Part shown: one piece after another, positions 15,426 through 29,524 of the stretch
Layout: each line of letters opens with the position of its first letter
Position numbering within the stretch: position 1 is the stretch's first letter
Source of the DNA: an uncultured Bacteroides sp.
Lineage (GTDB): Bacteria; Bacteroidota; Bacteroidia; Bacteroidales; Bacteroidaceae
Reading direction: 5' to 3'
DNA: 64,000 nt
Assembly (NCBI GenBank): GCA_902491215.1
Contig: CABUGV010000002.1
Span: 95,206 to 159,205, forward strand
Program-made: the position numbers and the translations under genes
Notes under the pieces: model-generated
Told to the model about the DNA's origin: nothing
The model's input: the letters and a program-made list of their open reading frames with translations, nothing else
Database searches by the model: none

Positions 15426-17264
15426 ATGAGAAAAGAAATCATTACATCCATGGCCCTGCTGGCAGCTCTGACGTCGGCTTCGGCCAAAAACAAGGTGATT
15501 GAAGATCCGAGTCTGAAATTCTCATCTACTCCGGTGCTCGGCATAGACGAGATAATATTGGGCGACACGGCTACAACCGTAAAGTTCAGCATTGAAGATA
15601 CACCTGGAAAAACATTCACCATCGCTTCTAGAGCGGCACTCTATGCCGGCGGACAGAAGTACGCCTACACTTCATGTTCGGGCATCACACCTGACATGGC
15701 AACAGCTGTACCAGCTGAAGGCGAACTCCACTTCACAATGAATTTCAAGCCTGTACCATCTGGCACAAAAACGGTTGATTTCAAAGAATCTGAATCGGAC
15801 AAAGGATGGAGCATCTGGGGCATTCATCTCGACGGCAAGAAGGAAAAGGTGGATGTACCTGCCGAACTGCGCAAGCAGAAGCTCGACCGCGAACAGCCGC
15901 TTCCTGCCATCGTCCCTTCATACGGTTATGCAGAAATAAGCGGACGCCTGCTCGGCTACTCTACCGACATGAATTTCAGCGTCAGCCTTACATCAACCGA
16001 CATGCTTACGCTCAACGACGAGACTGTCGACTGCACACTCTCGCCTGATGGAAGCTTCACCGGCAAAGTGATGCTCTGCGCTACAGCACCTATATATTTG
16101 AACGTAGGCGAACACAGAATTGAACTTCTTGCTTCGCCTGGCAAATCAGCTTCAGTAACAGTGAGCCTGCCAGGAATCTCTGAAGACAACGACAGGGATG
16201 ACGCGAAGAGCATTTGGTTTGAAGGCGAACTCAGCGCATTCAACGACGAGTACAACTCGCTCGACGATGATGTCACCGAAAAAGCCCTCTACAAGTGGGA
16301 TTTTCCAGAGTTCAAGTCCTCCGGAATTGTTCCTTTCAAGGAAAAACAGCTGAAGACTCTCAACTTGATAAAGGCCAACATCGACAGCGACAAGAATCTG
16401 AGCAGTGTCATGAAGAACTATCTTAAAGCGAGAACAGAACTTGCAGCAAGCATCAACATCATCACAGCACCGCTCCTCTACCGCAACATGACTCAGGGCA
16501 AGGAAGCAGAAGTGCCGGCCGACTACTACGACGAGGTAATATCGATGAACGCATTCAACAACAAGTTCAATGCATACACAAGCATGGCACCACGCCTTGC
16601 ACAGCTCACAGTTGCTATCGCTAGAAACAACGAAAAACTCTACAACCTCTTCAAGGACAACAGCGAACTCATTCCGCAGCTCACTTACGCACAGACCGTT
16701 GCCAAACAGTTTGCAGACTTTACACCTGTCAGTGACGAAATAAAAGAAGCAATCAAGGGCAATTCTCCGGCATTTGCAGACAAACTCTTCGAAATGAACG
16801 ATGAAGTTGTTGCCCGCATCGAAGCCAACAAGAGCAAGACCGGATATACGGTTCATGATCTTGACGAGAATCTAAAGGGTGCCGACGTATTCAACAATAT
16901 CATATCGCAGTTCAAGGGCAAACCAATCCTCGTTGACTTCTGGGCAACATGGTGCGGACCTTGCCGCATGGGCATGAAGACCATCGAACCGCTCAAACAG
17001 GAAATGGCCGGCAAAGTGACATTCGTTTACGTATCAGGTGTGACATCGCCTAAGAATCTTTGGCAGAACATGATACCGGACATCCACGGCGAACACTTCT
17101 ATGTAACCGCAGAGCAGTGGCAGACACTCCTCTCGCAGTTCGAAAGTCAGGGCATACCGACATACGTGGTTGTCGACAAGGACGGAAATGTTCAGAGCAA
17201 ATTCATTGGTTTCCCTGGAAATGACAAACTCAAGGAAGAATTCGAAAAAGCTCTGGCAAAATAA
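15426..17264 (+). CDS. TlpA-family thiol:disulfide oxidoreductase with a long N-terminal extracytoplasmic domain
   Basis: Signal peptide and a C-terminal thioredoxin fold with WCGPC ([10 protein letters not shown]); 612 aa. Confidence 0.8.
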
Positions 17265-18556: not shown

Positions 18557-19300
18557 ATGAAAAAGAATCTACTTCTTGCGTTGGCACTTATGTTCTGCGG
18601 CGCTGCAAGTGCTCAGGACATACAGTTGCACTACGATTTCGGAAGCGCAATCTACAACGACATTCCTGAACGTCCGAAAGTAACAACAACTGTAGAAATG
18701 TTTAAGGCCGACAAGTGGGGAAGCACATATTTCTTTACAGATATCGACTATTACAGCACTGGTACAGCAGGTGCATACTGGGAAATTTCCAGGGAATTCA
18801 ATGTAAGCAAAAACAAGCAGTGGGCAGCACACGTGGAGTACAACGGCGGAATGAGCTCAGACAAGCATCTTAACATGCCTCCATCAAGATTCCAGCATTC
18901 AGTACTCGTGGGTCCGGCATGGAACTGGGCAAGCAAGGATTTCAGCAAGACATTCTCTGTACAGCTCATGTACAAATATTACTTCAAGGGTGCACAGCCA
19001 TATCAGAGTGCATTCAACGGATTCCAGCTCACAGAAGTTTGGAGCGTGACTTTTGCAAACAAGCTCTGCACATTCTCAGGATTCGCAGATCTCTGGTATG
19101 ACAAGAATGTCAACGGAAAACTGATATTCATGTCAGAGCCTCAGTTCTGGTTCAATCTGAACACAATAAAGGGTATGGAAGGCGTAAACCTCAGTCTCGG
19201 TACTGAAGTTGAAATCAGCAACAACTTCGTATACAACGACATGGGAAGAAACAACAAGCTGTACGCAATTCCTACAATTGCTGCAAAATGGACATTCTGA
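18557..19300 (+). CDS. Outer-membrane beta-barrel protein of unknown function (DUF5020-like)
   Basis: Signal peptide, alternating hydrophobic beta-strand pattern and a C-terminal aromatic residue (…AAKWTF). Confidence 0.5.
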   Translation: MKKNLLLALALMFCGAASAQDIQLHYDFGSAIYNDIPERPKVTTTVEMFKADKWGSTYFFTDIDYYSTGTAGAYWEISREFNVSKNKQWAAHVEYNGGMSSDKHLNMPPSRFQHSVLVGPAWNWASKDFSKTFSVQLMYKYYFKGAQPYQSAFNGFQLTEVWSVTFANKLCTFSGFADLWYDKNVNGKLIFMSEPQFWFNLNTIKGMEGVNLSLGTEVEISNNFVYNDMGRNNKLYAIPTIAAKWTF

Positions 19301-19442: not shown

Positions 19443-20147
19443 CTAAGCATAATATTTGTTCCTCCCGCTTCTGAAAAACACGAAAAGATGCAGAATCAAA
19501 GGCAGGTAATAAACCACATACTCAAACACAGTCATGTAAATATCCGAAACTTCAGAAGAAACGGCACATACGTAACGTATGCATCCCACAAGTTCAGAGG
19601 CAATTACCAACGTAAGAAAATATGGAGCCATTGATCTCAAAAGAGCAACATGAGCATCGATTGTATCCGCGAGCGACACGAAACGGCCTGACGTATAACC
19701 ATAAACATTGCCAGCAATAATCATAAGCAATACCGCCATTCCTGGAAGTCCTTTGAGAAACGAAGAATGTGCTACAGTTCCAACTGCACTAAGAAGAGGT
19801 CCTCCGCGGAAAAGAATCATTCCTAAAACAAGCGAAACATACACTATTACAACAAGCAGTGTCAGCATGAACGCCCTGCGCTGCTTGAGCGACCGATGTC
19901 CGCAAACTACAGCAGGAAGCCCCGACTCGACAAACACACCTAAACCAATGAGTGCAAAAACGACATACTGCAAACGGGCCATGCCGATATTGGACACAAT
20001 GTGGGAAACCGACCATCTAAGACCGTCGGAACTGACAAGACTGCGCACGTTCCATTCGTATACTCCTCCTATAAGCGAAAGGAAAGCAACCAACAGAATG
20101 GATGCAATCATGATAAGCGGCAGGCGCTTAAGCAGGTTATTCATCAT
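19443..20147 (-). pseudogene. AbgT-family (p-aminobenzoyl-glutamate / antimetabolite transporter) N-terminal fragment, 234 aa
   Basis: The N-terminus (LLKRLPLIMIASILLVAF…SLVSSDGLRW…FALIGLGVFVESGL) resembles AbgT/MtrF. Full-length family members are about 500-520 aa, and this ORF stops after about 230 aa. Confidence 0.4.
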
Positions 20148-20859
20148 CTGGTTCCAAATTGTCTATATCTATTATGCGAAGCTCCAATGCTCTGGTCACA
20201 AGACGTGTAGCATTTATGCCACCCCTTTCATTGTCTGGGAAAAGACGCGAAATCAGGTCGTTCTGACGCTTCTCGAGAGATTTTACACCGAACGGCATAC
20301 CCTTGAGCGATGCAATCATTTCTTTCGTATAGCCAAGAGCCAGGTGTCTGAGCATACGCTCGTCATACTCGTCAATATCATAGTCTACTATCGCTTCTTG
20401 TCGCTTGTTTTCATTAAGTACCGATTGACGGAAACGTTCAACAATCTTTTCCAGAATAGGCTGATTGAATACAAGTTTCTTGCCGTCAATAACGCTCTGA
20501 ACATCACCGCTGGTAAGAAGTTCTCCACACTTGAGAATAATGCCGTCTGCCCCTGCATCAAGCACGTCAACCCAGAGTTTCTCATTCAAAATCTCGCCAG
20601 TAAATATAAGTACATGCACATGCGGATAGCGCGAACGAATATTACGACAAATGTCAACACCGACAGTTGTAGAACCGCCCAGACCTAAATCCAGCAGTAC
20701 GAGATCCGGTTCCTGCTTTTCCATCAGTGACCAGAAATCAGACTCGGTCATAGCAGTACCAATAACTTCAGCCTGAGGTATCTCGTTACGAAAAATCTCT
20801 TCAGTTCCCTTGAGTTCAAGCTTGACATCTTCTACTATTATAACTTTAAACTTATCCAC
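20137..20859 (-). CDS. Response regulator, REC domain plus LuxR-type HTH
   Basis: Receiver domain (LVLLDLGLGG) and a C-terminal LuxR-like helix. It overlaps the downstream gene by 11 bp. Confidence 0.75.
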   Translation of the reverse strand: MDKFKVIIVEDVKLELKGTEEIFRNEIPQAEVIGTAMTESDFWSLMEKQEPDLVLLDLGLGGSTTVGVDICRNIRSRYPHVHVLIFTGEILNEKLWVDVLDAGADGIILKCGELLTSGDVQSVIDGKKLVFNQPILEKIVERFRQSVLNENKRQEAIVDYDIDEYDERMLRHLALGYTKEMIASLKGMPFGVKSLEKRQNDLISRLFPDNERGGINATRLVTRALELRIIDIDNLEPDDE

Positions 20860-20950: not shown

Positions 20951-23900
20951 TCAAGCAGACAACGGTATAGTGAAAACTATTCTGAATCCGCGTTGCGCCC
21001 GTTCAGCATAAATACGGCATCCGCGACGACCAGCACAATTATCGTGCTCACGTATTATCTGCCTGCAAACAAGAAATTGCGTGCCATTAAGCGTGCCATG
21101 CTGAGAATCAATGCTGAGAGAGTCTGGATAAAACAAACTGTTGAGTGTCTGTTCGTCGTATGTCCTACGTTCGTCCGTAAAAGTAAAAGCAACAAAATCG
21201 CCTCTTTCGGAGAAATCCAAACTCAATGTTCCTGGTTCAGCACACTGGAAAGCCTCAGTCAGCAAACTGTCAACCAGATATTCCAGCAAAATTACATCTC
21301 CTACAGCCTTGAGTTTTTTAGATGGACTCGCTATATTGAATACGACATCGAGATGTGCCTTTCGGTTTAGTTTGTCGAAACGGCGACGTGCATATTCTCC
21401 CAAGACGGCAACTTCAAACCTGCGTCTGCGGAACATCACATTGTCAAGCTGACGCGCAGCGCACATGCTCAACAGCGTAAACACTTCCTTATAGTAGCAT
21501 ACAAGTTCGTCCATAGAAACAATGGCAGATTTATCGGGACTGCCATCTGCAGAAATCAAGTCGTCTACAATCTTGCGGATTCTGTTCGGATAATACATTG
21601 TCTCATGTTTTATTGTGGAAAGACAATTATCGAGCACCATGTTCTGCACGTGTATAGCATTTTCTTCCATCTCAGCCCTACGTTTCTCATCCTCCAGCAG
21701 TTCTATGTCAACCAGTTTGGAATCCAATTTTATCTTTGAATAAAAAAGATGTATGGCCGTAAACTGTGCAATAAGCTTTATGATGATTTCCTCATCGTCG
21801 GAAAGCGAAGAGTTGTGCACAACCACAGCAAGCACGCCAACCATGACATTTTCGCCGTCGTTTTCAATGGTAAGCGGATAAGTACGTAATGTTCCTGCAG
21901 AATCATACTGACGACGATTCTGATACGTACTCTTCATCATTTCTTCAAGATATTCACGTTCAGGACACCCGTTTGAAAAAGAGAAACGCAAGGTTCCAGC
22001 CTCACCCGAAGGTACGCACAATGCCACTCCATCTGACAGATGTATGTCGTTGATACCTTCATGGAGAATCTCCACATAACGACCTATTCTTTCATCTTCA
22101 CGGTCCAGGGACTCCCCACCAGCTGTAAAAGAGAACATACGTCTGTTGAAACGAAGCAGTTGCGACATGTTCAGCAGAAACAGCTGATTGTGCCTGTAGT
22201 ACATCATATAATAAGCTGCAAGACCGAGGACTATCATCGTAACAATCAATATAATGATGGTCAGCTTATTGGTATACGATTCCTGCAAGTCGTTGCAGTA
22301 CTGTTCAATGTTCTTGTCCTGCGCCATAAGTTTATATAGACGCGTATAAACCTCATTGTTATAATGATATACGTTCCATCTCTTAAGTGCAAGAGCTGCG
22401 ATGGCAGCTTCATTGCGAATGTCGAGAATGACATGATAATCCGTATTGAAACCACGATTCCACAAATCTATTTCAGGCATGTTGAGTGTACCGCTCATGC
22501 TCATAAGTTCATTTCCTTCTGGGCAAACGCTGAGATAGTAATCATTGAGCATCATGCGGGCAGAATCGATATATGTCAAAGCATATTCATAGTAGCCGTC
22601 GACATTGCAGAAATAAGCCTGATCAGCATAGAATGAAGCTTTCTTCAGACGAGGATCATCAGGTGACCACACAACGGAATCTGCTTCAGAAGTATTATCT
22701 GTCGAACCAATCGTATGGCCACAAGAGATAGGCATGAAAGCTGAAATAACAAAAGCCAGCAAGCACAAAGTCTTTGCCACGCTCTTCGGCAATCGGAAAA
22801 AGAAACGGCTGCCCTGCCCCAATCTGCTTTCCACCCCAAAAGCACATACAGAAAACAAAGAACTGGTCTTCTTATATTTTTCTATGATGCCCCTGCAGTT
22901 CATCAGTCCGAATCCACTGCCCTTATTTCCTGCCGAAGCACTGTCATTGCCTATTGTGCTGGAATCATACACCTTTTCATTGACAATTTTGTCTACATCA
23001 GCTTCTGAGAGTCCGCATCCGGTGTCGGCAACATATATCTCCACATACTTTTCTCCGTCCACAGCACCAAGACAGACTTTACCGCCTTCTGGTGTAAATT
23101 TGCGTGCATTCTCAAGCAGGGTGTTCATCATGAAAAGAGTCAGAGCCTTATCAGCCTTAACACAACTGTCAGAAGCAACCACATCAAGCAATATACCTTT
23201 CATGCTGAAAGCGTTTCTGCTCTTGCGGAGTGTTTCAAAAAGAGGAGCAAGTGAAAATGTCTCTACGTGCAGACTCACTGTACCTTGCCTCATTTTAATC
23301 CAATGCAGAAGAACATCGTTGTAGTCATTTATTTTGTCGACAAGCTCTGAAACATATTTCAATCTTTCGCCGTTCTGTTCAGCATTGACATCAGCAAGCA
23401 TCTTCTTAACCTCACATACGATACGGTCAAGATACGGCGTGATGCCATACACGATGGAAAGACAAGTACATTTGTCAATATTGTCGCGTTTGTTTCCGAC
23501 AATGCGCAACTCATGCATTGCTCGTTCTTCCTCAAGCTTGCGGCGCTCACCTCCCAAGCCAAGATACATCTCACCGTTTCTTACTGTCCACTCATAGAAC
23601 ACCTGTATGACTCTTATCATTTCCTTATCGTAGAAAGCCATTCCACGCTTCTCTCTATACAAGTCATCACCTAGATCCGGAAACAGCGAACGAACATCAC
23701 TGTCGACAGAAGACATCACAGCCGTACGTATGTCGTCTACATTAGAAACATCTGCAGGAACAGAGCCGGTTATCCGTCTGCATATCTCAAGCACTTTAGA
23801 CAGTTTATCGACTATAAAGAATCCGTTTCTTCTCAAACGTCTTCCCCAAACAACCACAAGGGTTATGACAGCAACAGCTACAACAGCCACAAACAGCAGA

Positions 23901-25216
23901 AGTGCATTAATGTTTTTTTCTCTCTGCAGGAGATTGTCGTAACGGCTCTGCATCTCCATGTCCTGACGTGTAGCATCAAGTATGTCGAGATATATGTTTC
24001 TATTGTAATCCGACTCGCGCTTCATGCCCTTTGCACTGTACGTCATGCTCAACATCTCGCGTATGTCGGCAATCCATGCCGGCACAGTCTTTATCCTGTC
24101 GTCGGCAATCCATTTCATCTCGGTAGAAACAGAATCAGCCTCGACCTCAAAAACAGACAAACTGTCTTCTGGATTTTCAAAACCATAATATCTGCTATGA
24201 TGTTCGTTGACAAAATGAAGAGCATTTCCCAAACATTCCAGCGCCTCGTCATAACGTCCGTGATAGAAATAATAATGTGACATTGTGACGTAGGCCTTCG
24301 ACATCGTATATATGTTGCCGTAATCGCGAGCCTTCTCCAACGACCATTCTGCCATCATAAGAGGCAACACACTGACATCACCTCCACGCACAGAAAACAT
24401 ATCTTTCAAAAAGCCCACACGTGAGTATATCAGCGAATCGGCATCTACAAGAATGTCTGCTATAGACAACATTGCGTTAGATTCAAAATAGCTGTTGCCC
24501 GATATATGGCTGATCATGAGACATCGGGAAAGCATACGCATTTCTTCATTGCGCATTTCCTCAAAAGAACCTTTTCCCTTGAATCCGCCCCGTCCCATCA
24601 TGTAGCAATAATATGCCATCTGAGCATCGTCATCCTCTACAAGTTCACGATGGTCTGTCAGATAGGACATTTCATTCATAGCCTGAGATTCCTGACGCAA
24701 ACTATGATAGAAATCACATGAAACCAGATGAAATTCGCTTCTCGCATAGTCAAACAGTCTTTTCTGCCTTTCATTCAGATTATCCGACTCGTTCTCGATA
24801 CGGTCGATACATTCCATTGCGGCAAACCTATGATCATAAAATTCACGGTTGTCCGAAGTGCGCTGACATATCCTCATCTGTCCAACATCTGATATCAGTT
24901 TCAGCAACTGGTTGGATGTACTTTTCCCGACTGTATTATATATAGCTCTTGCGCTGTCATAATCCATGTGCATCATTCTTACGAAAGCCATATAACACAT
25001 GGCTTCATATTTACCGTCAGAATAAGAGCCTGACATGTCGTGGGCCATGCTCGCATACATATACGTGGAGTCCAATGAACGATAACGCATCTTGTAGGCG
25101 CTGTCGTTCAAGGCATCGACACCAACATTGCCTCCTCCGCCGCATGACACAACAGAAAGACAAAGGCTCATGGCAAACAACGCCAACATACATAATACAG
25201 CTATTCGGCTCTTCAT
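20951..25216 (-). CDS. Tandem in-frame fusion of two paralogous sensor histidine kinases (DUF5112/DUF5113-like)
   Basis: Unit 1 has a lipobox (…VVSCGGG), a TM helix (ALLLFVAVVAVAVITLVVVWG), an H-box (MHELR) and a canonical HATPase (VADTGCGL, GSGFGLMNCRG). Unit 2 begins at an internal GTG near 22780 with a second lipoprotein signal (VAKTLCLLAFVISAFMPISCG), then a TM helix, an H-box-like IKHET and a degenerate HATPase. Confidence 0.7.
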   Translation of the reverse strand: MKSRIAVLCMLALFAMSLCLSVVSCGGGGNVGVDALNDSAYKMRYRSLDSTYMYASMAHDMSGSYSDGKYEAMCYMAFVRMMHMDYDSARAIYNTVGKSTSNQLLKLISDVGQMRICQRTSDNREFYDHRFAAMECIDRIENESDNLNERQKRLFDYARSEFHLVSCDFYHSLRQESQAMNEMSYLTDHRELVEDDDAQMAYYCYMMGRGGFKGKGSFEEMRNEEMRMLSRCLMISHISGNSYFESNAMLSIADILVDADSLIYSRVGFLKDMFSVRGGDVSVLPLMMAEWSLEKARDYGNIYTMSKAYVTMSHYYFYHGRYDEALECLGNALHFVNEHHSRYYGFENPEDSLSVFEVEADSVSTEMKWIADDRIKTVPAWIADIREMLSMTYSAKGMKRESDYNRNIYLDILDATRQDMEMQSRYDNLLQREKNINALLLFVAVVAVAVITLVVVWGRRLRRNGFFIVDKLSKVLEICRRITGSVPADVSNVDDIRTAVMSSVDSDVRSLFPDLGDDLYREKRGMAFYDKEMIRVIQVFYEWTVRNGEMYLGLGGERRKLEEERAMHELRIVGNKRDNIDKCTCLSIVYGITPYLDRIVCEVKKMLADVNAEQNGERLKYVSELVDKINDYNDVLLHWIKMRQGTVSLHVETFSLAPLFETLRKSRNAFSMKGILLDVVASDSCVKADKALTLFMMNTLLENARKFTPEGGKVCLGAVDGEKYVEIYVADTGCGLSEADVDKIVNEKVYDSSTIGNDSASAGNKGSGFGLMNCRGIIEKYKKTSSLFSVCAFGVESRLGQGSRFFFRLPKSVAKTLCLLAFVISAFMPISCGHTIGSTDNTSEADSVVWSPDDPRLKKASFYADQAYFCNVDGYYEYALTYIDSARMMLNDYYLSVCPEGNELMSMSGTLNMPEIDLWNRGFNTDYHVILDIRNEAAIAALALKRWNVYHYNNEVYTRLYKLMAQDKNIEQYCNDLQESYTNKLTIIILIVTMIVLGLAAYYMMYYRHNQLFLLNMSQLLRFNRRMFSFTAGGESLDREDERIGRYVEILHEGINDIHLSDGVALCVPSGEAGTLRFSFSNGCPEREYLEEMMKSTYQNRRQYDSAGTLRTYPLTIENDGENVMVGVLAVVVHNSSLSDDEEIIIKLIAQFTAIHLFYSKIKLDSKLVDIELLEDEKRRAEMEENAIHVQNMVLDNCLSTIKHETMYYPNRIRKIVDDLISADGSPDKSAIVSMDELVCYYKEVFTLLSMCAARQLDNVMFRRRRFEVAVLGEYARRRFDKLNRKAHLDVVFNIASPSKKLKAVGDVILLEYLVDSLLTEAFQCAEPGTLSLDFSERGDFVAFTFTDERRTYDEQTLNSLFYPDSLSIDSQHGTLNGTQFLVCRQIIREHDNCAGRRGCRIYAERAQRGFRIVFTIPLSA

Positions 25217-25442: not shown

Positions 25443-25793
25443 GTGAAGAATCTATATTACAACCAGATAATTGAGATTTTAACCAATAATCCAGAAGGCG
25501 TAAAGGTAAACAATATTTCGAGACAGCTGTACAATTCACACTGCAGCCTGTTCGAAACTGATGATCTGTACAAGAGCATCTACGAATCTACACGACGCTT
25601 TCTGTGGAAACAAAGCAAAAGCCCCAGTTCGCCGTTCTGCAAGGTCGACGGCAAATGGGGCGTATACGCATTGCGCAAGTCATTTGTAATACAGCTGGAA
25701 CTGTGTTTCGACAACTGGGAATACGATGTTGTACAACACAAGAAACCTAAGGAAGAAGAAAACTCCAGCTATCCAAACCTGTTCGGATGGTGA
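25443..25793 (+). CDS. Hypothetical small protein (possible wHTH)
   Basis: 116-aa ORF, divergent from the kinase gene. No motif I can name. Confidence 0.4.
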   Translation: MKNLYYNQIIEILTNNPEGVKVNNISRQLYNSHCSLFETDDLYKSIYESTRRFLWKQSKSPSSPFCKVDGKWGVYALRKSFVIQLELCFDNWEYDVVQHKKPKEEENSSYPNLFGW

Positions 25794-25813: not shown

Positions 25814-26929
25814 TCATTCGCTCTTCCCGGCCAGCTGTGCACCTCTCAACTTGTCTTGCTTTGTTATACCTTTCTTGACTTCTATATTTATTCCGTCACT
25901 CATACCTGTTTCTATAAAGCGTCGGCTGAAAGCTGATGTTTTACTGTCATAAACATAGACAAAAGCTGAATCGCCGGAGAATTCCACAACGCTCTCCGGA
26001 ACAGACAATACTCCTGATACACGACCAAGAACAATTTCTGCATTGGCGCTGTAACCAGACCTAATCTTGTTCTTGCCGTCTACATCAACAGCAGCCTTTA
26101 TCTCAAACTGATTGGCACCATTTACCTCAACAGCCTTTGGAGAGATATATTCCAATACAGCATTAAGTTTGAGATTCTGCATGGCACCGATGGTTATAGA
26201 CACATTCATACCTTCATGAATGGCACCAACCTCTGTCTCGTCCACATTTCCCCTGAAAATCAGATTGCTCATATCAGCAACTGTAGCAATAGTTGTACCG
26301 TCGTTAAAAGTATTGCTCAATATGACTGAATTACCAACTTTTACCGGTATATCAAGAATGAGTCCATCTATGGTAGAACGTATAAGCGTGGTACTAAGCG
26401 AGGCGTTATTTGACGAAACACCGTCGCGCACAATTTCAAGCGACTCGCCCGCTGCAGCTTTCTCCTCCTCTGCCTGAAGAAAAGTCTGTTCTGCCTGCTC
26501 ATACTCATTTCGACTTACGAGTCCCCTGTCGTAAAGAACCTTCTGGCGTTCATAATCAGCCTTTGCCTTGCCGTAATTGATAGCGGCGAGACGCACACGG
26601 CTTTCGGCAGAGCTGAGACTGCTCATGTCAGGAATAACCTTGATTTTTGCAATAACCTCATTTTTCTCGACTGTCTGTCCAGCACTCTTGCAAATTTCGG
26701 ATATGATGCCCGAAATCTGCGGTTTGACAGCCACCTCGTCGCGAGGTTCTATCTTACCTGTGGCTATTGTCGAACGCACGATATCGCGCACCTGAGGACT
26801 AACCAGTTCATACTTTACCTCTTCTTTCTTGTTTCTCAAAAAGAGAAAAACAAAAGTTCCGACAAAGATTGCAGCCACCAAAACGATGACCGCCCATTTC
26901 AAATACTTTTTCATATTCTTAATCTGCAT
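25814..26929 (-). CDS. Efflux transporter periplasmic adaptor (HlyD/MacA family)
   Basis: N-terminal TM anchor, a coiled-coil (YERQKVLYDRGLVSRNEYEQAEQTFLQAEEEKAAA) and a beta-barrel domain. It is the last gene of the ABC efflux operon. Confidence 0.85.
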   Translation of the reverse strand: MQIKNMKKYLKWAVIVLVAAIFVGTFVFLFLRNKKEEVKYELVSPQVRDIVRSTIATGKIEPRDEVAVKPQISGIISEICKSAGQTVEKNEVIAKIKVIPDMSSLSSAESRVRLAAINYGKAKADYERQKVLYDRGLVSRNEYEQAEQTFLQAEEEKAAAGESLEIVRDGVSSNNASLSTTLIRSTIDGLILDIPVKVGNSVILSNTFNDGTTIATVADMSNLIFRGNVDETEVGAIHEGMNVSITIGAMQNLKLNAVLEYISPKAVEVNGANQFEIKAAVDVDGKNKIRSGYSANAEIVLGRVSGVLSVPESVVEFSGDSAFVYVYDSKTSAFSRRFIETGMSDGINIEVKKGITKQDKLRGAQLAGKSE

Positions 26930-26967
26930 TTATTTTTCATTCAATCAAAATCAAGCATTTCTATATA

Positions 26968-28215
26968 TCACTCATCATGCATAGCATCTATAGGCTTGAC
27001 AGACATGGCCCTATATGCCGGAGCCATACCGGCCAACGCTCCGAACACCGTGAGCATGAGCAATGCACCCACTGCATCGCCGAATGGTATAAGGAATGAA
27101 TAATCTGTCCCATCGGCCATGTTGACACCATACTCCAGAGCGGCAAGCACCATGACACCAAGCGTTATGCCCGACAATCCGGCAACGATCGTTATAAGAA
27201 CACTTTCCATCAATATCTGCACCATTATGTCCAACGGCTTGGCGCCGATGGCACGGCGTATTCCAATTTCAGATGTACGTTCGCGCACTGTCACCATCAT
27301 AATGTTGCTCACACCGATGGCTCCTGCAAGCAAAGTGCCCAGACCGATCATCCACGTCAATATGCTGATGCCCTTGAACAGACTTTCAACCATGCTGAAC
27401 ATGGCTTCCGAATTGAAGAACACGACTGCCTGACGGTCATCAGGACTTATGAAATGCCTTTTCTTCAAAATTGGAGTTATCTGCTTCTCCAGCTCGCTTA
27501 CGCTGAATCCCGGTTTAGCCTTGAAAGTAAGCATATCTATGCGGTTTCCCCTATTATATATGTCCTGCATCAGTCCAAGAGGAACAATTACCGTCTCCTC
27601 CGTATTCGAACCGACAGCCATGCTTCCGCTTCCTTTGCTGTACACACCGATGATGCGATAATAAACGCCATCAACCTTGACAGCCATGCCGCACGGATCA
27701 GGAACATCAGGAAAAAGACTTTCATGGATACGGGAACCTATAATACATACCTTGCGGCCTTCAATCACATCCATCGCATTCAACGTTCGTCCGCACGACA
27801 AGTTCTGATCCTCAATGGCCCCATAATCGGTAGTAATGCCCTTGACACTGCACGACACAGACTTATCGCCATATATAGCCTTTGCACCGTAGGAAAACAC
27901 GATTGGTGCCACAACATCAACTCCATCAACAAACTGCTTCACAACCTCAGGGTCTGTGCTGTCGAGATTCCACATACGCCCTTTCTGAAAACCCTTATAG
28001 GCAAGTTCAGTAGACGACGTCATGATGAATCCCGAATTCGTGGCGAAACCTTCGAAATTGGCAGTCATCATCTGCATGAATCCCAAACCTCCACCGCTGA
28101 GAACCACAAGCATGAATATGCCCCAGAACACACCGAAGGCTGTAAGCACGCTTCGCATCTTGTTGCGCGAAACCGTGGACAGGATTTCTTCCAACTGATC
28201 AATATCGAATCTCAT
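26968..28215 (-). CDS. ABC transporter permease, FtsX/MacB-type
   Basis: MacB-like topology: N-terminal TM, a large periplasmic domain, then 3 C-terminal TM helices. 415 aa. Confidence 0.85.
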   Translation of the reverse strand: MRFDIDQLEEILSTVSRNKMRSVLTAFGVFWGIFMLVVLSGGGLGFMQMMTANFEGFATNSGFIMTSSTELAYKGFQKGRMWNLDSTDPEVVKQFVDGVDVVAPIVFSYGAKAIYGDKSVSCSVKGITTDYGAIEDQNLSCGRTLNAMDVIEGRKVCIIGSRIHESLFPDVPDPCGMAVKVDGVYYRIIGVYSKGSGSMAVGSNTEETVIVPLGLMQDIYNRGNRIDMLTFKAKPGFSVSELEKQITPILKKRHFISPDDRQAVVFFNSEAMFSMVESLFKGISILTWMIGLGTLLAGAIGVSNIMMVTVRERTSEIGIRRAIGAKPLDIMVQILMESVLITIVAGLSGITLGVMVLAALEYGVNMADGTDYSFLIPFGDAVGALLMLTVFGALAGMAPAYRAMSVKPIDAMHDE

Positions 28216-28267
28216 CAGAAACTTATATATATTCGTTTTATACTTCCATTATTTATGAATCACAGCA

Positions 28268-29524
28268 TCATTCAGTCCTCAATGCCTCTATTGGACTTAT
28301 GCTTACAGCCTTGCGCGCAGGAAGCAGACCAGCCAAAGTTCCGGCTATCACGAGTACCATCATAGCCTGAAACGCAACGTTGATATCGACTGTCGGATCG
28401 ACAAATATCTTGGCCGAAAAAACTCCCACATTCACGCTCTTTCCACCGATGGATACATTCATCCATTCGGTGAACACTATGCCTGCAACCATACCGACAT
28501 AGCCGAAAATGGAGGTTATGACGATACTTTCGAGAATTATCTGCTTTATTATCGAGAATGGTTTGGCACCAAGTGCTCGGCGTATTCCCAGTTCGCGCGT
28601 ACGCTCCTTTATAGTAATGAACATGATGTTGCTGATTCCCGCAATGCCGCTGAGAAGAGTAAGTATTCCGACCACCCACAAGGCCGTCACCAGCATGTTC
28701 TGAGCCTTCTGCATCTGAATGTTGTTGAGAAAGCGGTTGTTTATCCATATAGCAGAAAGATCATCGGAATGAAACGAATGTTTTCGTCCCATAGCTTTTC
28801 TGTACGACGCCTCAAAATCGTTGTTGGCCTTTTCGCTGTCCAGCCCCTTAGTCGAGATTGTAATATTGTCGACACGGTCGCCCTTCTGGTAAATCAGCTG
28901 CAGGGTTGAAAACGGGATATAGGCATTGGGACTTCCAATGCTGTTGTCGTCTGAATAAACTCCAACAACCTCATACACCATACTTCCGCAACGGAGAGTC
29001 TGTCCCACTGCATCCGAGGCCTTTCCGTAAAGTACATCAGCCGTCTTGCTATGCAGGACTATTGATTTTCTCTTCCCTTCCATATCTGGAAGATTGATGA
29101 AACGCCCGTAGACCATTGCCATCGGCTGAAAACGTGTGTAATCGGGATAAACACCATTGATGTTCAGCGAGACGTACCCTTTGGGGCCAGTCAGAATGAC
29201 GGATGAAAGTGTCAGCTGTGCACCGGCAGAGCTCACATTCGAAGCAAAAGAACGTTCTGACATTTGAATGTCGGCAGTGTTCAACCTTGTGCCTCTTCCA
29301 GGATTCAGACCGTTATATTCCATCGACGCAAATCCGGGATATATCCTCACGGAGTTGAGAGGAAGATTGCCCGACATGGCTTTGAAGGCATTGATAAGTC
29401 CGTTTCCCGCTCCGAGAAGAACGATGAGCATGAATATGCCCCAGGCTATTGAAAAGCCTGTAAGCACGGTTCGGAATTTGTTTCGAGAAACAGAATAATA
29501 TATTTCTTGAAAATCCTCAAGCAT
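28268..29524 (-). CDS. ABC transporter permease, FtsX/MacB-type (paralog)
   Basis: Same architecture as 26968-28215; 418 aa. Confidence 0.85.
   Translation of the reverse strand: MLEDFQEIYYSVSRNKFRTVLTGFSIAWGIFMLIVLLGAGNGLINAFKAMSGNLPLNSVRIYPGFASMEYNGLNPGRGTRLNTADIQMSERSFASNVSSAGAQLTLSSVILTGPKGYVSLNINGVYPDYTRFQPMAMVYGRFINLPDMEGKRKSIVLHSKTADVLYGKASDAVGQTLRCGSMVYEVVGVYSDDNSIGSPNAYIPFSTLQLIYQKGDRVDNITISTKGLDSEKANNDFEASYRKAMGRKHSFHSDDLSAIWINNRFLNNIQMQKAQNMLVTALWVVGILTLLSGIAGISNIMFITIKERTRELGIRRALGAKPFSIIKQIILESIVITSIFGYVGMVAGIVFTEWMNVSIGGKSVNVGVFSAKIFVDPTVDINVAFQAMMVLVIAGTLAGLLPARKAVSISPIEALRTE

Follow-up and report, generated by a model that had tools for sequence, protein, structure and literature searches.

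Introduction

Histidine kinases are taught as symmetric homodimers, and current work on them deals with transient asymmetry between the protomers and with autophosphorylation in cis versus in trans. A stretch of 64,000 nt from an uncultured Bacteroides sp. (contig CABUGV010000002.1; this whole stretch is called the window below) raises the question of what becomes of the two protomers when two sensor kinases share one reading frame. On its minus strand lies a 1421-aa open reading frame (ORF), running from an ATG start to a TGA stop, with two related sensor-kinase modules one behind the other. An earlier reading of this DNA (the original prediction) had recognised the single frame and its two units, and had considered a recent loss of a stop codon, a sequencing error hiding a stop, or a true fusion, with the first kinase being modulated by a weakened second one. 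Is the fusion real, and what could each half contribute? According to our analysis the ORF probably encodes a single-polypeptide, hard-wired asymmetric 'heterodimeric' histidine kinase, which would stem from a tetratricopeptide repeat (TPR)-sensor kinase that was duplicated in tandem, has long been fused, and whose copies underwent complementary losses. This kinase family appears to have frozen protomer asymmetry into the gene. Coordinates given below are those of the window, and residue numbers are those of the 1421-aa kinase.

20951..25216, minus strand: whole ORF, tandem two-module sensor kinase (full-length homologs of 1319-1555 aa; single frame in 79/80 loci)

The kinase belongs to the functionally uncharacterised DUF5112/DUF5113 family, and its orthologs are named 'DUF5113 domain-containing protein'. 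The family is abundant in dominant Bacteroidales of the human and animal gut, where its annotation consists of DUF5112/DUF5113 only.

Conservation and age of the fused reading frame

Orthologous loci were collected in a species-level scan with one genome per species (at least 473 relatives), and the best 80 loci were analysed. They derive from Bacteroides, Phocaeicola, Mediterranea, Caecibacteroides and some metagenome-assembled genomes (MAGs) of Prevotellaceae; the 80-sequence alignment used throughout consists of 79 species plus the window. The original prediction had asked whether related genomes carry two genes or one at this locus. Both modules lie in a single uninterrupted frame in 79 of the 80 species-level loci, which speaks against an accidental loss of a stop codon. 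The original prediction had itself named such fused orthologs with a conserved junction as an argument against an accident, and the loci bear this out. The sole locus with the modules in different frames (L044, URWP01000022.1) is on a contig whose name gives 1.8x coverage, and this frame split is probably an assembly error.

At 90% identity, the window protein stands for a cluster with 180 members; the majority of the members listed have a length of 1421 aa, and they stem from many independent assemblies. A search of 5.8 billion proteins returned homologs in the size range given above, nearly all of them with 98–100% coverage and about 40% identity, among them a B. ovatus homolog seen on 815 contigs. 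Module 2 alone was used for a HMMER search of 1.84 billion representatives at 50% identity, giving 512 matches. Nearly all of the best 150 were 1100–1640 aa long, with module 2 in the C-terminal half. Short matches (570–850 aa) mostly start in the middle of module 1 and read through the junction; they are contig-end fragments. Among these best 150 representatives no convincing standalone module 2 was seen, with P0156, P0199 and P0216 (about 570–604 aa) being ambiguous, and a two-gene form was not established.

The relationship between the two units is detected by BLASTP of one half against the other (E = 7e-5 for the region of DUF5113 and the following transmembrane (TM) segment; 24% identity over 268 aa, E = 0.005, for the region comprising the dimerisation and histidine phosphotransfer (DHp) and the catalytic ATP-binding (CA) domain) and by hhalign of the family profiles of both DHp-CA modules (98% probability, E = 1.7e-13, 225 columns). 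Identity of the DHp-CA part amounts to 62% within module 1 and 51% within module 2 but only to about 18% between the two types, so that duplication and fusion must be much older than the radiation of these genera. The alignments demonstrate that the fusion of two sensor-kinase copies is ancient and conserved in gut Bacteroidales. In genome annotation, long 'double kinase' ORFs of this type should be left intact and not be marked as frameshifts.

Among the species-level matches listed, none exceeds 47% identity to the window kinase, and closer sequences are found in metagenome assemblies, namely an 83% relative (P0002) and the 180-member cluster. L022 is titled Coprobacillus sp. and L077 Clostridium sp., and P0003 is named Roseburia sp. 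by one source; for a Bacteroidales gene, such Firmicutes names suggest contamination in MAG binning.

Complementary losses of catalytic motifs

The catalytic parts of the two modules are the following.

23267..23551, minus strand: DHp1, residues 556-650, His-less dimerisation hairpin (H1204 aligns to G591)
23444-23446, minus strand: Gly591, phospho-acceptor position of module 1 (alignment)
22781..23266, minus strand: CA1, residues 651-812, intact ATP-binding domain (HATPase_c, 52.6 bits)
21422..21721, minus strand: DHp2, residues 1166-1265, with the H-box DNCLSTI-K1203-H1204-E1205-T-x-Y-Y-P1210 (conservation)
21605-21607, minus strand: His1204, the only invariant H-box His
20954..21421, minus strand: CA2, residues 1266-1421, kinase fold with destroyed ATP site (HATPase_c, 24.6 bits; cut-off 26.4)

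In module 1 the Pfam model HATPase_c covers residues 696–811, and the CA1 profile matches CA domains of kinases in the PDB with E-values down to 1.6e-10. The ATP-binding boxes read N703, D731-x-G733-x-G735 and G766-x-G768-F-G770-L. N703, D731, G733, G735, G766, G768 and G770 are each present in 80/80 sequences, and N703, D731, G733, G768 and G770 are also invariant in an alignment of 140 sequences with identities down to 31%. Unit 1 had been regarded as a canonical kinase. This does not hold for its DHp, where the phospho-acceptor His is absent and Gly591 takes the H-box position, being aligned with His1204 by module-to-module hhalign. Position 591 is Gly in 74/80 orthologs. In the 208 family proteins in which it could be located it is Gly (178), Ser (13), Ala (12), Asp (2), Asn (2) or Thr (1), and His in none (0/208). 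The neighbouring position 590 is Tyr in the window and N/T/Y in the family, with His in 8/208.

Module 2 has lost what module 1 has kept, and the reverse. K1203, H1204 and E1205 are each found in 80/80 sequences, and H1204 and E1205 are invariant across the 140 sequences. The motif [KR]HE[STA] is present in the C-terminal half of 246/247 family proteins, and the one protein that escapes this expression (P0223) reads THET. The ATP-binding boxes of unit 2 had been described as degenerate, which agrees with an alignment, residue by residue, between solved CA domains and the family profile (E = 4.6e-6), the basis of the box assignments: the Asn of the N-box is replaced by Glu1321 (56 Glu, 10 Ala and others among the 80), the G1 box is FTD1348-E-R1350-R1351, with D-x-R-R in place of DxGxG, and the glycines of the G2 box are down to the single Gly1378 (G1378-T-Q-F). 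The HATPase_c score of module 2 is below the cut-off.

None of the 247 family proteins contains a second copy of the strict H-box, N-box or G2 motif, and each motif keeps to the same module throughout, including the shorter (about 1140 aa) divergent members. At the level of sequence, the motif losses of the two modules are complementary, and the protein as a whole has one invariant ATP site and one invariant acceptor His. Mean column conservation is 0.70 for DHp1, 0.70 for DHp2 and 0.57 for CA2, and CA2 has an invariant motif of its own, R1398-G-C1400-R. Judged by this conservation, the degenerate parts are under selection and not decaying.

Topology, fold and putative pairing of the modules

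The remaining parts of the protein, from the N-terminus onwards, are listed here.

25142..25216, minus strand: N-terminal lipoprotein signal peptide, residues 1-25, lipobox ...VVS-C25 (hydropathy, conservation)
24332..25120, minus strand: DUF5112, residues 33-295, start of the periplasmic TPR solenoid (PF17139, 2.4e-69)
23858..24322, minus strand: DUF5113 copy 1, residues 299-453, runs into TM2 (PF17140, 6e-43)
23849-23905, minus strand: TM2, residues 438-456 (hydropathy 3.29, then WGRRLRRN)
22721..22780, minus strand: junction, signal-peptide-like hydrophobic segment, residues 813-832, lipobox I-S-C832 (sequence, hydropathy)
22652..22720, minus strand: hypervariable periplasmic linker, residues 833-855 (mean column conservation 0.14)
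22193..22648, minus strand: DUF5113 copy 2, residues 857-1008, runs into TM4 (PF17140, 1.9e-40)
22202-22258, minus strand: TM4, residues 987-1005 (hydropathy 2.52, then YYRHNQ)
21818..22099, minus strand: cytoplasmic alpha/beta domain, residues ~1040-1133, module 2 only (secondary structure predicted by AlphaFold2)

DUF5112 (234 bits) and the two DUF5113 copies (147 and 139 bits) score above the gathering thresholds of PF17139 and PF17140. The two units had been taken as complete copies of the same architecture, and this needs correction: DUF5112 is confined to module 1, and module 2 has the additional alpha/beta domain. The latter shows the order alpha-beta-beta-alpha-beta-beta-beta with a predicted local distance difference test (pLDDT) of about 80–89 in AlphaFold2; residues ~1040–1133 had no Pfam match at E ≤ 10, and by the predicted order of secondary structure they may be called PAS/GAF-like. 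No Response_reg or helix-turn-helix (HTH) domain was found by Pfam in the 1421-aa kinase.

Hydropathy analysis revealed four hydrophobic segments (residues 5–23, 438–456, 812–830 and 987–1005). Basic residues are located on the predicted cytoplasmic sides, and RFFFRLPK precedes the junction segment. From these features we infer the order periplasmic sensor, TM2, cytoplasmic DHp1-CA1, outward junction, periplasmic DUF5113, TM4 and cytoplasmic alpha/beta-DHp2-CA2. With the outward junction segment, two membrane sensor kinases could be joined head to tail in spite of the topological problem that this poses.

An AlphaFold2 model of residues 296–1421, built from a 53-sequence alignment, has a mean pLDDT of 82. 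In each module a long signalling helix is followed by a DHp hairpin and an alpha/beta CA fold, and His1204 is placed in helix 1 just ahead of the kink at Pro1210. The sole long stretch with a pLDDT below 50 comprises junction and linker (residues 814–851). The top PDB matches found by Foldseek are the DHp-CA cores of DivL, HK853, WalK, ZraS and RetS. Residues 26–437 (DUF5112 and DUF5113) were modelled with a pLDDT of 92.5 and a predicted template modelling score (pTM) of 0.91 as an all-helical TPR superhelix of about 410 aa. Its nearest solved folds, all from TPR receptors that bind peptides or proteins, are LGN/Pins, the quorum-sensing receptors Rap and NprR, and MalT domain III (TM-scores about 0.4–0.56, Foldseek), and the modelled TPR fold suggests a peptide or protein as ligand.

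Coevolution was analysed by mutual information with average product correction (MI-APC) on 193 non-redundant sequences (effective number 162), counting pairs at Z > 3.5. The highest densities for non-adjacent regions were seen for DHp1-DHp2 (4.8 per mille) and for linker 1 with the alpha/beta domain (4.6 per mille), and region pairs across the membrane reached about 0.5–2 per mille. We consider the region-level coevolution of DHp1 and DHp2 as suggestive and do not count it as evidence for contact.

For the second pair, which involves residues 457–555 (23552-23848) and 1006–1165 (21722-22201), positions 539/540 couple to 1014/1020/1023 and to 1152/1156. This covariation may reflect a second contact between the modules or a phylogenetic artefact.

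Eight cysteines on the cytoplasmic side (Cys479, 585, 774, 791, 1198, 1252, 1384 and 1400; window 21017-23784, minus strand) are kept in 69–80 of the 80 orthologs. Some are paired between the modules by their paralogous positions: C585/C1198, six residues ahead of the H-box position in DHp helix 1, and, within the CA domains, C774/C1384 and C791/C1400. As the organism is an anaerobe, such conservation might point to redox or metal sensing.

A model for phosphotransfer between the modules

Two further genes form a conserved cassette with the kinase.

20137..20859, minus strand: response regulator with receiver domain (REC; Asp57, Thr87, Lys110), DUF5932 and LuxR/NarL-like HTH (Pfam, alignments)
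19443..20147, minus strand: half-size AbgT-family membrane protein, third gene of the cassette (PF03806, 1.6e-9)

A LuxR-type response regulator downstream of the kinase had been predicted, and indeed a REC-DUF5932 protein starts 91 nt past the kinase stop. It aligns with DevR, VraR and NarL, and its C-terminus matches the LuxR/NarL-type HTH of VraR. The regulator is located downstream of the kinase in 78/80 loci, and Asp57, Thr87 and Lys110 are invariant in 72 regulator orthologs. A conserved canonical receiver next to a kinase-like protein implies a phosphorelay. The start of the AbgT-like gene overlaps the stop of the regulator gene by 11 nt. In the scan, kinase, regulator and AbgT-family protein were found in 79, 72 and 71 loci, respectively, and other neighbours vary. 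In the gap between kinase and regulator no promoter or terminator-like site was detected, using a sigma-70 consensus that is not appropriate for Bacteroidales, and terminator-like sites in the scan were not above chance.

Across loci whose kinases share only about 36–47% identity, the regulators share 72–85%, so the output side is under much stronger constraint than the sensor.

With a single invariant ATP site in CA1 and a single invariant His in the other module, phosphorylation across the modules is the simplest reading. His1204 is the candidate phospho-acceptor: it is invariant and lies in an H-E...P context, and its location with respect to the CA domain fits, as does the predicted helix. 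We therefore infer the following model, in which the phosphorylation of His1204 by CA1, the pairing of the modules, the topology, the type of ligand and the regulon are all conditional. The ancestor would have been a lipoprotein-anchored TPR-sensor kinase that was duplicated in tandem and fused, after which the copies lost complementary functions. Module 1, consisting of the lipidated N-terminus, the DUF5112-DUF5113 solenoid, TM2, cytoplasmic helices, DHp1 and CA1, would have kept the ATP site and carry Gly in place of His, and module 2, with DUF5113, TM4, the alpha/beta domain, DHp2 and CA2, would have kept His1204 and be devoid of the ATP-binding residues. The modules would be placed next to each other, in the manner of protomers in a usual kinase dimer. 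The arrangement of DHp1 and DHp2 would be shifted by a signal from the periplasm, which may be a peptide or protein, and perhaps also by a cytoplasmic one. CA1 would then bind ATP and, most likely, phosphorylate His1204 on DHp2, from where the phosphoryl group may pass to Asp57 of the NarL/LuxR-like regulator. The regulator would control at least the co-transcribed AbgT-like transporter.

Several points weigh against this model. The Pfam models HisKA, HisKA_2 and HisKA_3 recognise neither DHp at E ≤ 10. Profile alignments to PDB structures cover CA and DHp helix 2 and stop before helix 1, and searches of the PDB with the family profiles and with the window sequence gave no direct alignment of His1204 to a solved phospho-His. 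The pTM of the model of residues 296–1421 is 0.53. The top MI-APC pairs are dominated by hubs and show no enrichment for the helix register (6/30 versus about 5 expected). The chain might also dimerise, giving DHp1-DHp1' and DHp2-DHp2' bundles, and certain degenerate CA domains still bind nucleotide. Literature searches, of incomplete coverage, found no functional study of the DUF5112/DUF5113/DUF5932 family. The same searches, limited in the same way, returned no description of a single-chain complementary tandem kinase and no study of a Bacteroides two-component system with AbgT.

If confirmed, the protein would be a naturally occurring single-chain system with a direction of phosphorylation, from CA1 to His1204, that is set by the sequence. 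Input from two dissimilar sensor domains in the periplasm, plus one additional domain in the cytoplasm, would converge on a single output. Mutations could be confined to one 'protomer' without the tricks required for mixed dimers. Such a tandem kinase would be informative for kinase asymmetry and for the mechanism of trans-phosphorylation.

Comparison with known kinases

Trans-phosphorylation between protomers is well known in class-I kinases, and the tandem kinase shares with this class (HK853, WalK/YycG, EnvZ type) the DHp hairpin, the Bergerat-fold CA domain and an adjacent REC regulator. Unlike in the class-I homodimers, neither module has both the His and the ATP site, and the asymmetry would be permanent and not dynamic. 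In its predicted mode of action the protein thus resembles a class-I histidine kinase, although it falls outside the standard members of this class.

The closest described functional analogue is the FasB/FasC/FasA system of Streptococcus pyogenes. FasB and FasC heterodimerise, and FasC's kinase domain can be dispensed with (PMC12675982). FasB was proposed to phosphorylate His246 of the putative pseudokinase FasC, from which the phosphoryl group is transferred to FasA (PMC12675982). As in FasBC, an obligate heteromer of kinase-like proteins, one partner has the working ATP-binding domain and the other the His, for the tandem kinase as read from its sequence. FasB and FasC are the products of separate genes of a Gram-positive bacterium, whereas the tandem kinase is one polypeptide with a membrane-crossing joint; it also differs from FasBC in that the complementary losses affect invariant motifs family-wide and that both modules have periplasmic sensor domains. 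The likeness is functional, and we claim no sequence relationship.

The histidine pseudokinases DivL and RetS have the fold of a kinase but are without a catalytic feature. DivL of Caulobacter has Tyr in place of the phospho-acceptor His, and module 1 of the window protein has Tyr590-Gly591. RetS of Pseudomonas acts through heteromerisation of its DHp with GacS. Both are separate proteins that modulate other kinases; in the tandem kinase the His-less and the ATP-less module are covalently linked and make up one catalytic set.

Within the Bacteroidales, FimS of P. gingivalis is a kinase of the inner membrane whose TPR sensor in the periplasm is large and has possibly a peptide as ligand (PMC11053733). 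It consists of a single module of about 618 aa, is a proposed homodimer and has a different regulator, whereas the tandem kinase has two modules. The NCBIfam model of FimS is among the best matches to CA1; with 58.8 bits versus a cut-off of 600 for the equivalog NF053520, and a match to the CA region only, the kinase is not a FimS equivalog. Hybrid two-component systems (HTCS) of Bacteroides likewise fuse normally separate two-component parts into a large single chain. They comprise a kinase, its own REC and an AraC-type DNA-binding domain, in contrast to the tandem kinase, which is without REC or HTH and has a separate regulator.

The junction as a possible relic or processing site

The motif GQGSRFFFRLPKS, noticed earlier as the end of unit 1, does end at residue 812 (22781), and the frame continues. 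The GTG at 22778-22780 leads, as described, into the lipoprotein-like signal VAKTLCLLAFVISAFMPISC(832)G. The proposed use of this GTG as start of unit 2 is not supported, since only 27/78 loci have a start-type codon at this position.

In sequence, the junction segment has the build of a lipoprotein signal, as in substrates of signal peptidase II. Its basic n-region, K811-S-V-A-K815, is followed by 16 hydrophobic residues and by I-S-C832. Across the family, the distance from the last K/R to the Cys has a median of 16 aa at the junction versus 17 aa at the N-terminal signal, whose Cys25 is kept in 75/80 orthologs. A small residue (S/G/A) precedes the Cys in 59/64 cases at the junction versus 73/74 at the N-terminus. 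Cys832 is kept in 66/80 orthologs, within a segment with a conservation of 0.40 and ahead of the hypervariable linker, the length of which ranges from 0 to more than 30 aa among orthologs. By these features the junction lipobox would be either a slowly decaying relic of a lipoprotein gene that existed before the fusion, or a site of lipidation and cleavage.

The second possibility would make the kinase a polyprotein. Lgt would attach diacylglyceryl at Cys832 and signal peptidase II would cut there; module 1 would thereby acquire a membrane anchor at its C-terminus, and module 2 would become a lipoprotein. The cut chains would form the same complementary heterodimer, with a topology of module 2 that mirrors module 1, and the fusion would serve 1:1 stoichiometry and co-insertion. 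We regard such processing as possible, though on balance doubtful. It is favoured by the close resemblance of the junction to the N-terminal signal, by the retention of Cys832 in poorly conserved surroundings and by the junction being the only long stretch of low confidence in the AlphaFold2 model. There is also a bacterial membrane polyprotein that is cut at an internal signal sequence, FbcH (cytochrome b-c1) of Bradyrhizobium. However, about 14/80 orthologs are without the Cys and yet fused, hence cleavage is not essential or universal in the family. In addition, the lipobox could be the decaying relic, or the Cys could have another role, and we know of no precedent for the action of Lgt and LspA on an internal lipobox of a polytopic protein. 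If it were true for the roughly 80% of orthologs with the lipobox, a single event of translation and insertion would yield both kinase subunits at 1:1. For the first time, a polytopic signalling protein would be seen to undergo lipoprotein-type processing at an internal site, and the gene would be a natural fusion enforcing the stoichiometry of an asymmetric kinase.

Readings without phosphotransfer between the modules

Cross-module phosphorylation, in one chain or after a cut, has to be weighed against readings in which it does not occur. The protein might not be a kinase at all. In this case DHp2 would act as phosphatase or scaffold, the regulator would be phosphorylated by another kinase or by acetyl phosphate, and ATP bound to CA1 would be regulatory. 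The presence of the repurposed kinase-like proteins DivL and RetS among the top fold matches is in line with such a role, as is the failure of the HisKA models to match either DHp. Against it stand the catalytic ATP residues of CA1, invariant in 140 sequences, and the likewise invariant H-E pair of DHp2; such a pattern is what one would expect of catalysis rather than of nucleotide sensing alone. The synteny of the regulator in 78/80 loci also argues against a role apart from phosphotransfer, and we consider this explanation improbable.

Even less credit can be given to the view that module 1 is a complete, self-sufficient kinase and module 2 merely its weakened modulator. A canonical ATP-binding domain is indeed present in module 1 and absent from module 2, and the string MHELR around His568 in the window resembles an H-box. 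As phospho-acceptor of module 1, however, His568 was rejected: its column is not conserved (35 Tyr, 33 His, 4 Phe and others) and is found about 22 residues upstream of the H-box equivalent, which is Gly591 and never His. Across both DHp domains, H1204 of module 2 is the one invariant His. From the original prediction, the genuine two-sensor fusion is thus retained, while modulation of a complete kinase 1 by kinase 2 is not, as module 1 is without the His.

An artefact or accident, be it the loss of a stop codon, an error hiding a stop at about 22780 or the production of two proteins from the internal GTG, has next to no probability: apart from the in-frame GTG and the signal-peptide-like sequence behind it nothing points in this direction, a hidden stop is ruled out by the 180-member cluster, mostly at full length from independent assemblies, a recent stop loss is ruled out by the 79/80 single frames (with the lone exception at 1.8x coverage), the nearly uniform 150 representatives and the 18% identity between modules, indicative of an old event, and an internal start is opposed by the 27/78 start-type codons and by the best 150 matches, which hold no convincing standalone module 2.

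The AbgT-like gene and the genomic neighbourhood

The AbgT-like gene occurs in two size classes in its 71 loci, with 206–267 aa in 40 of them, including the window, and 481–506 aa in 31. The half-size form matches only positions ~252–354 of the profile and might be a remnant, a transporter or a co-sensor; an example of the full-length form is L010:10902-12422.

Directly upstream of the kinase and on the same strand, a MacAB-like efflux set extends over 25814-29524 (minus), comprising an HlyD-family adaptor (25814-26929) and two MacB_PCD/FtsX permeases (26968-28215 and 28268-29524). The neighbour clusters that the 80 related loci have in common do not include this set, which is probably unrelated to the kinase cassette. 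Between the efflux genes and the kinase lies a 116-aa ORF on the plus strand (25443-25793) without a Pfam match.

On the other side of the cassette, also on the plus strand, are a gene for a DUF5020 protein (18557-19300, 3e-98) and a 612-aa lipoprotein-like ORF (15426-17264), the translation of which ends in a thioredoxin-like WCGPC motif. A DUF4369/AhpC-TSA/thioredoxin-like gene is located downstream of the cassette in 11 other loci.

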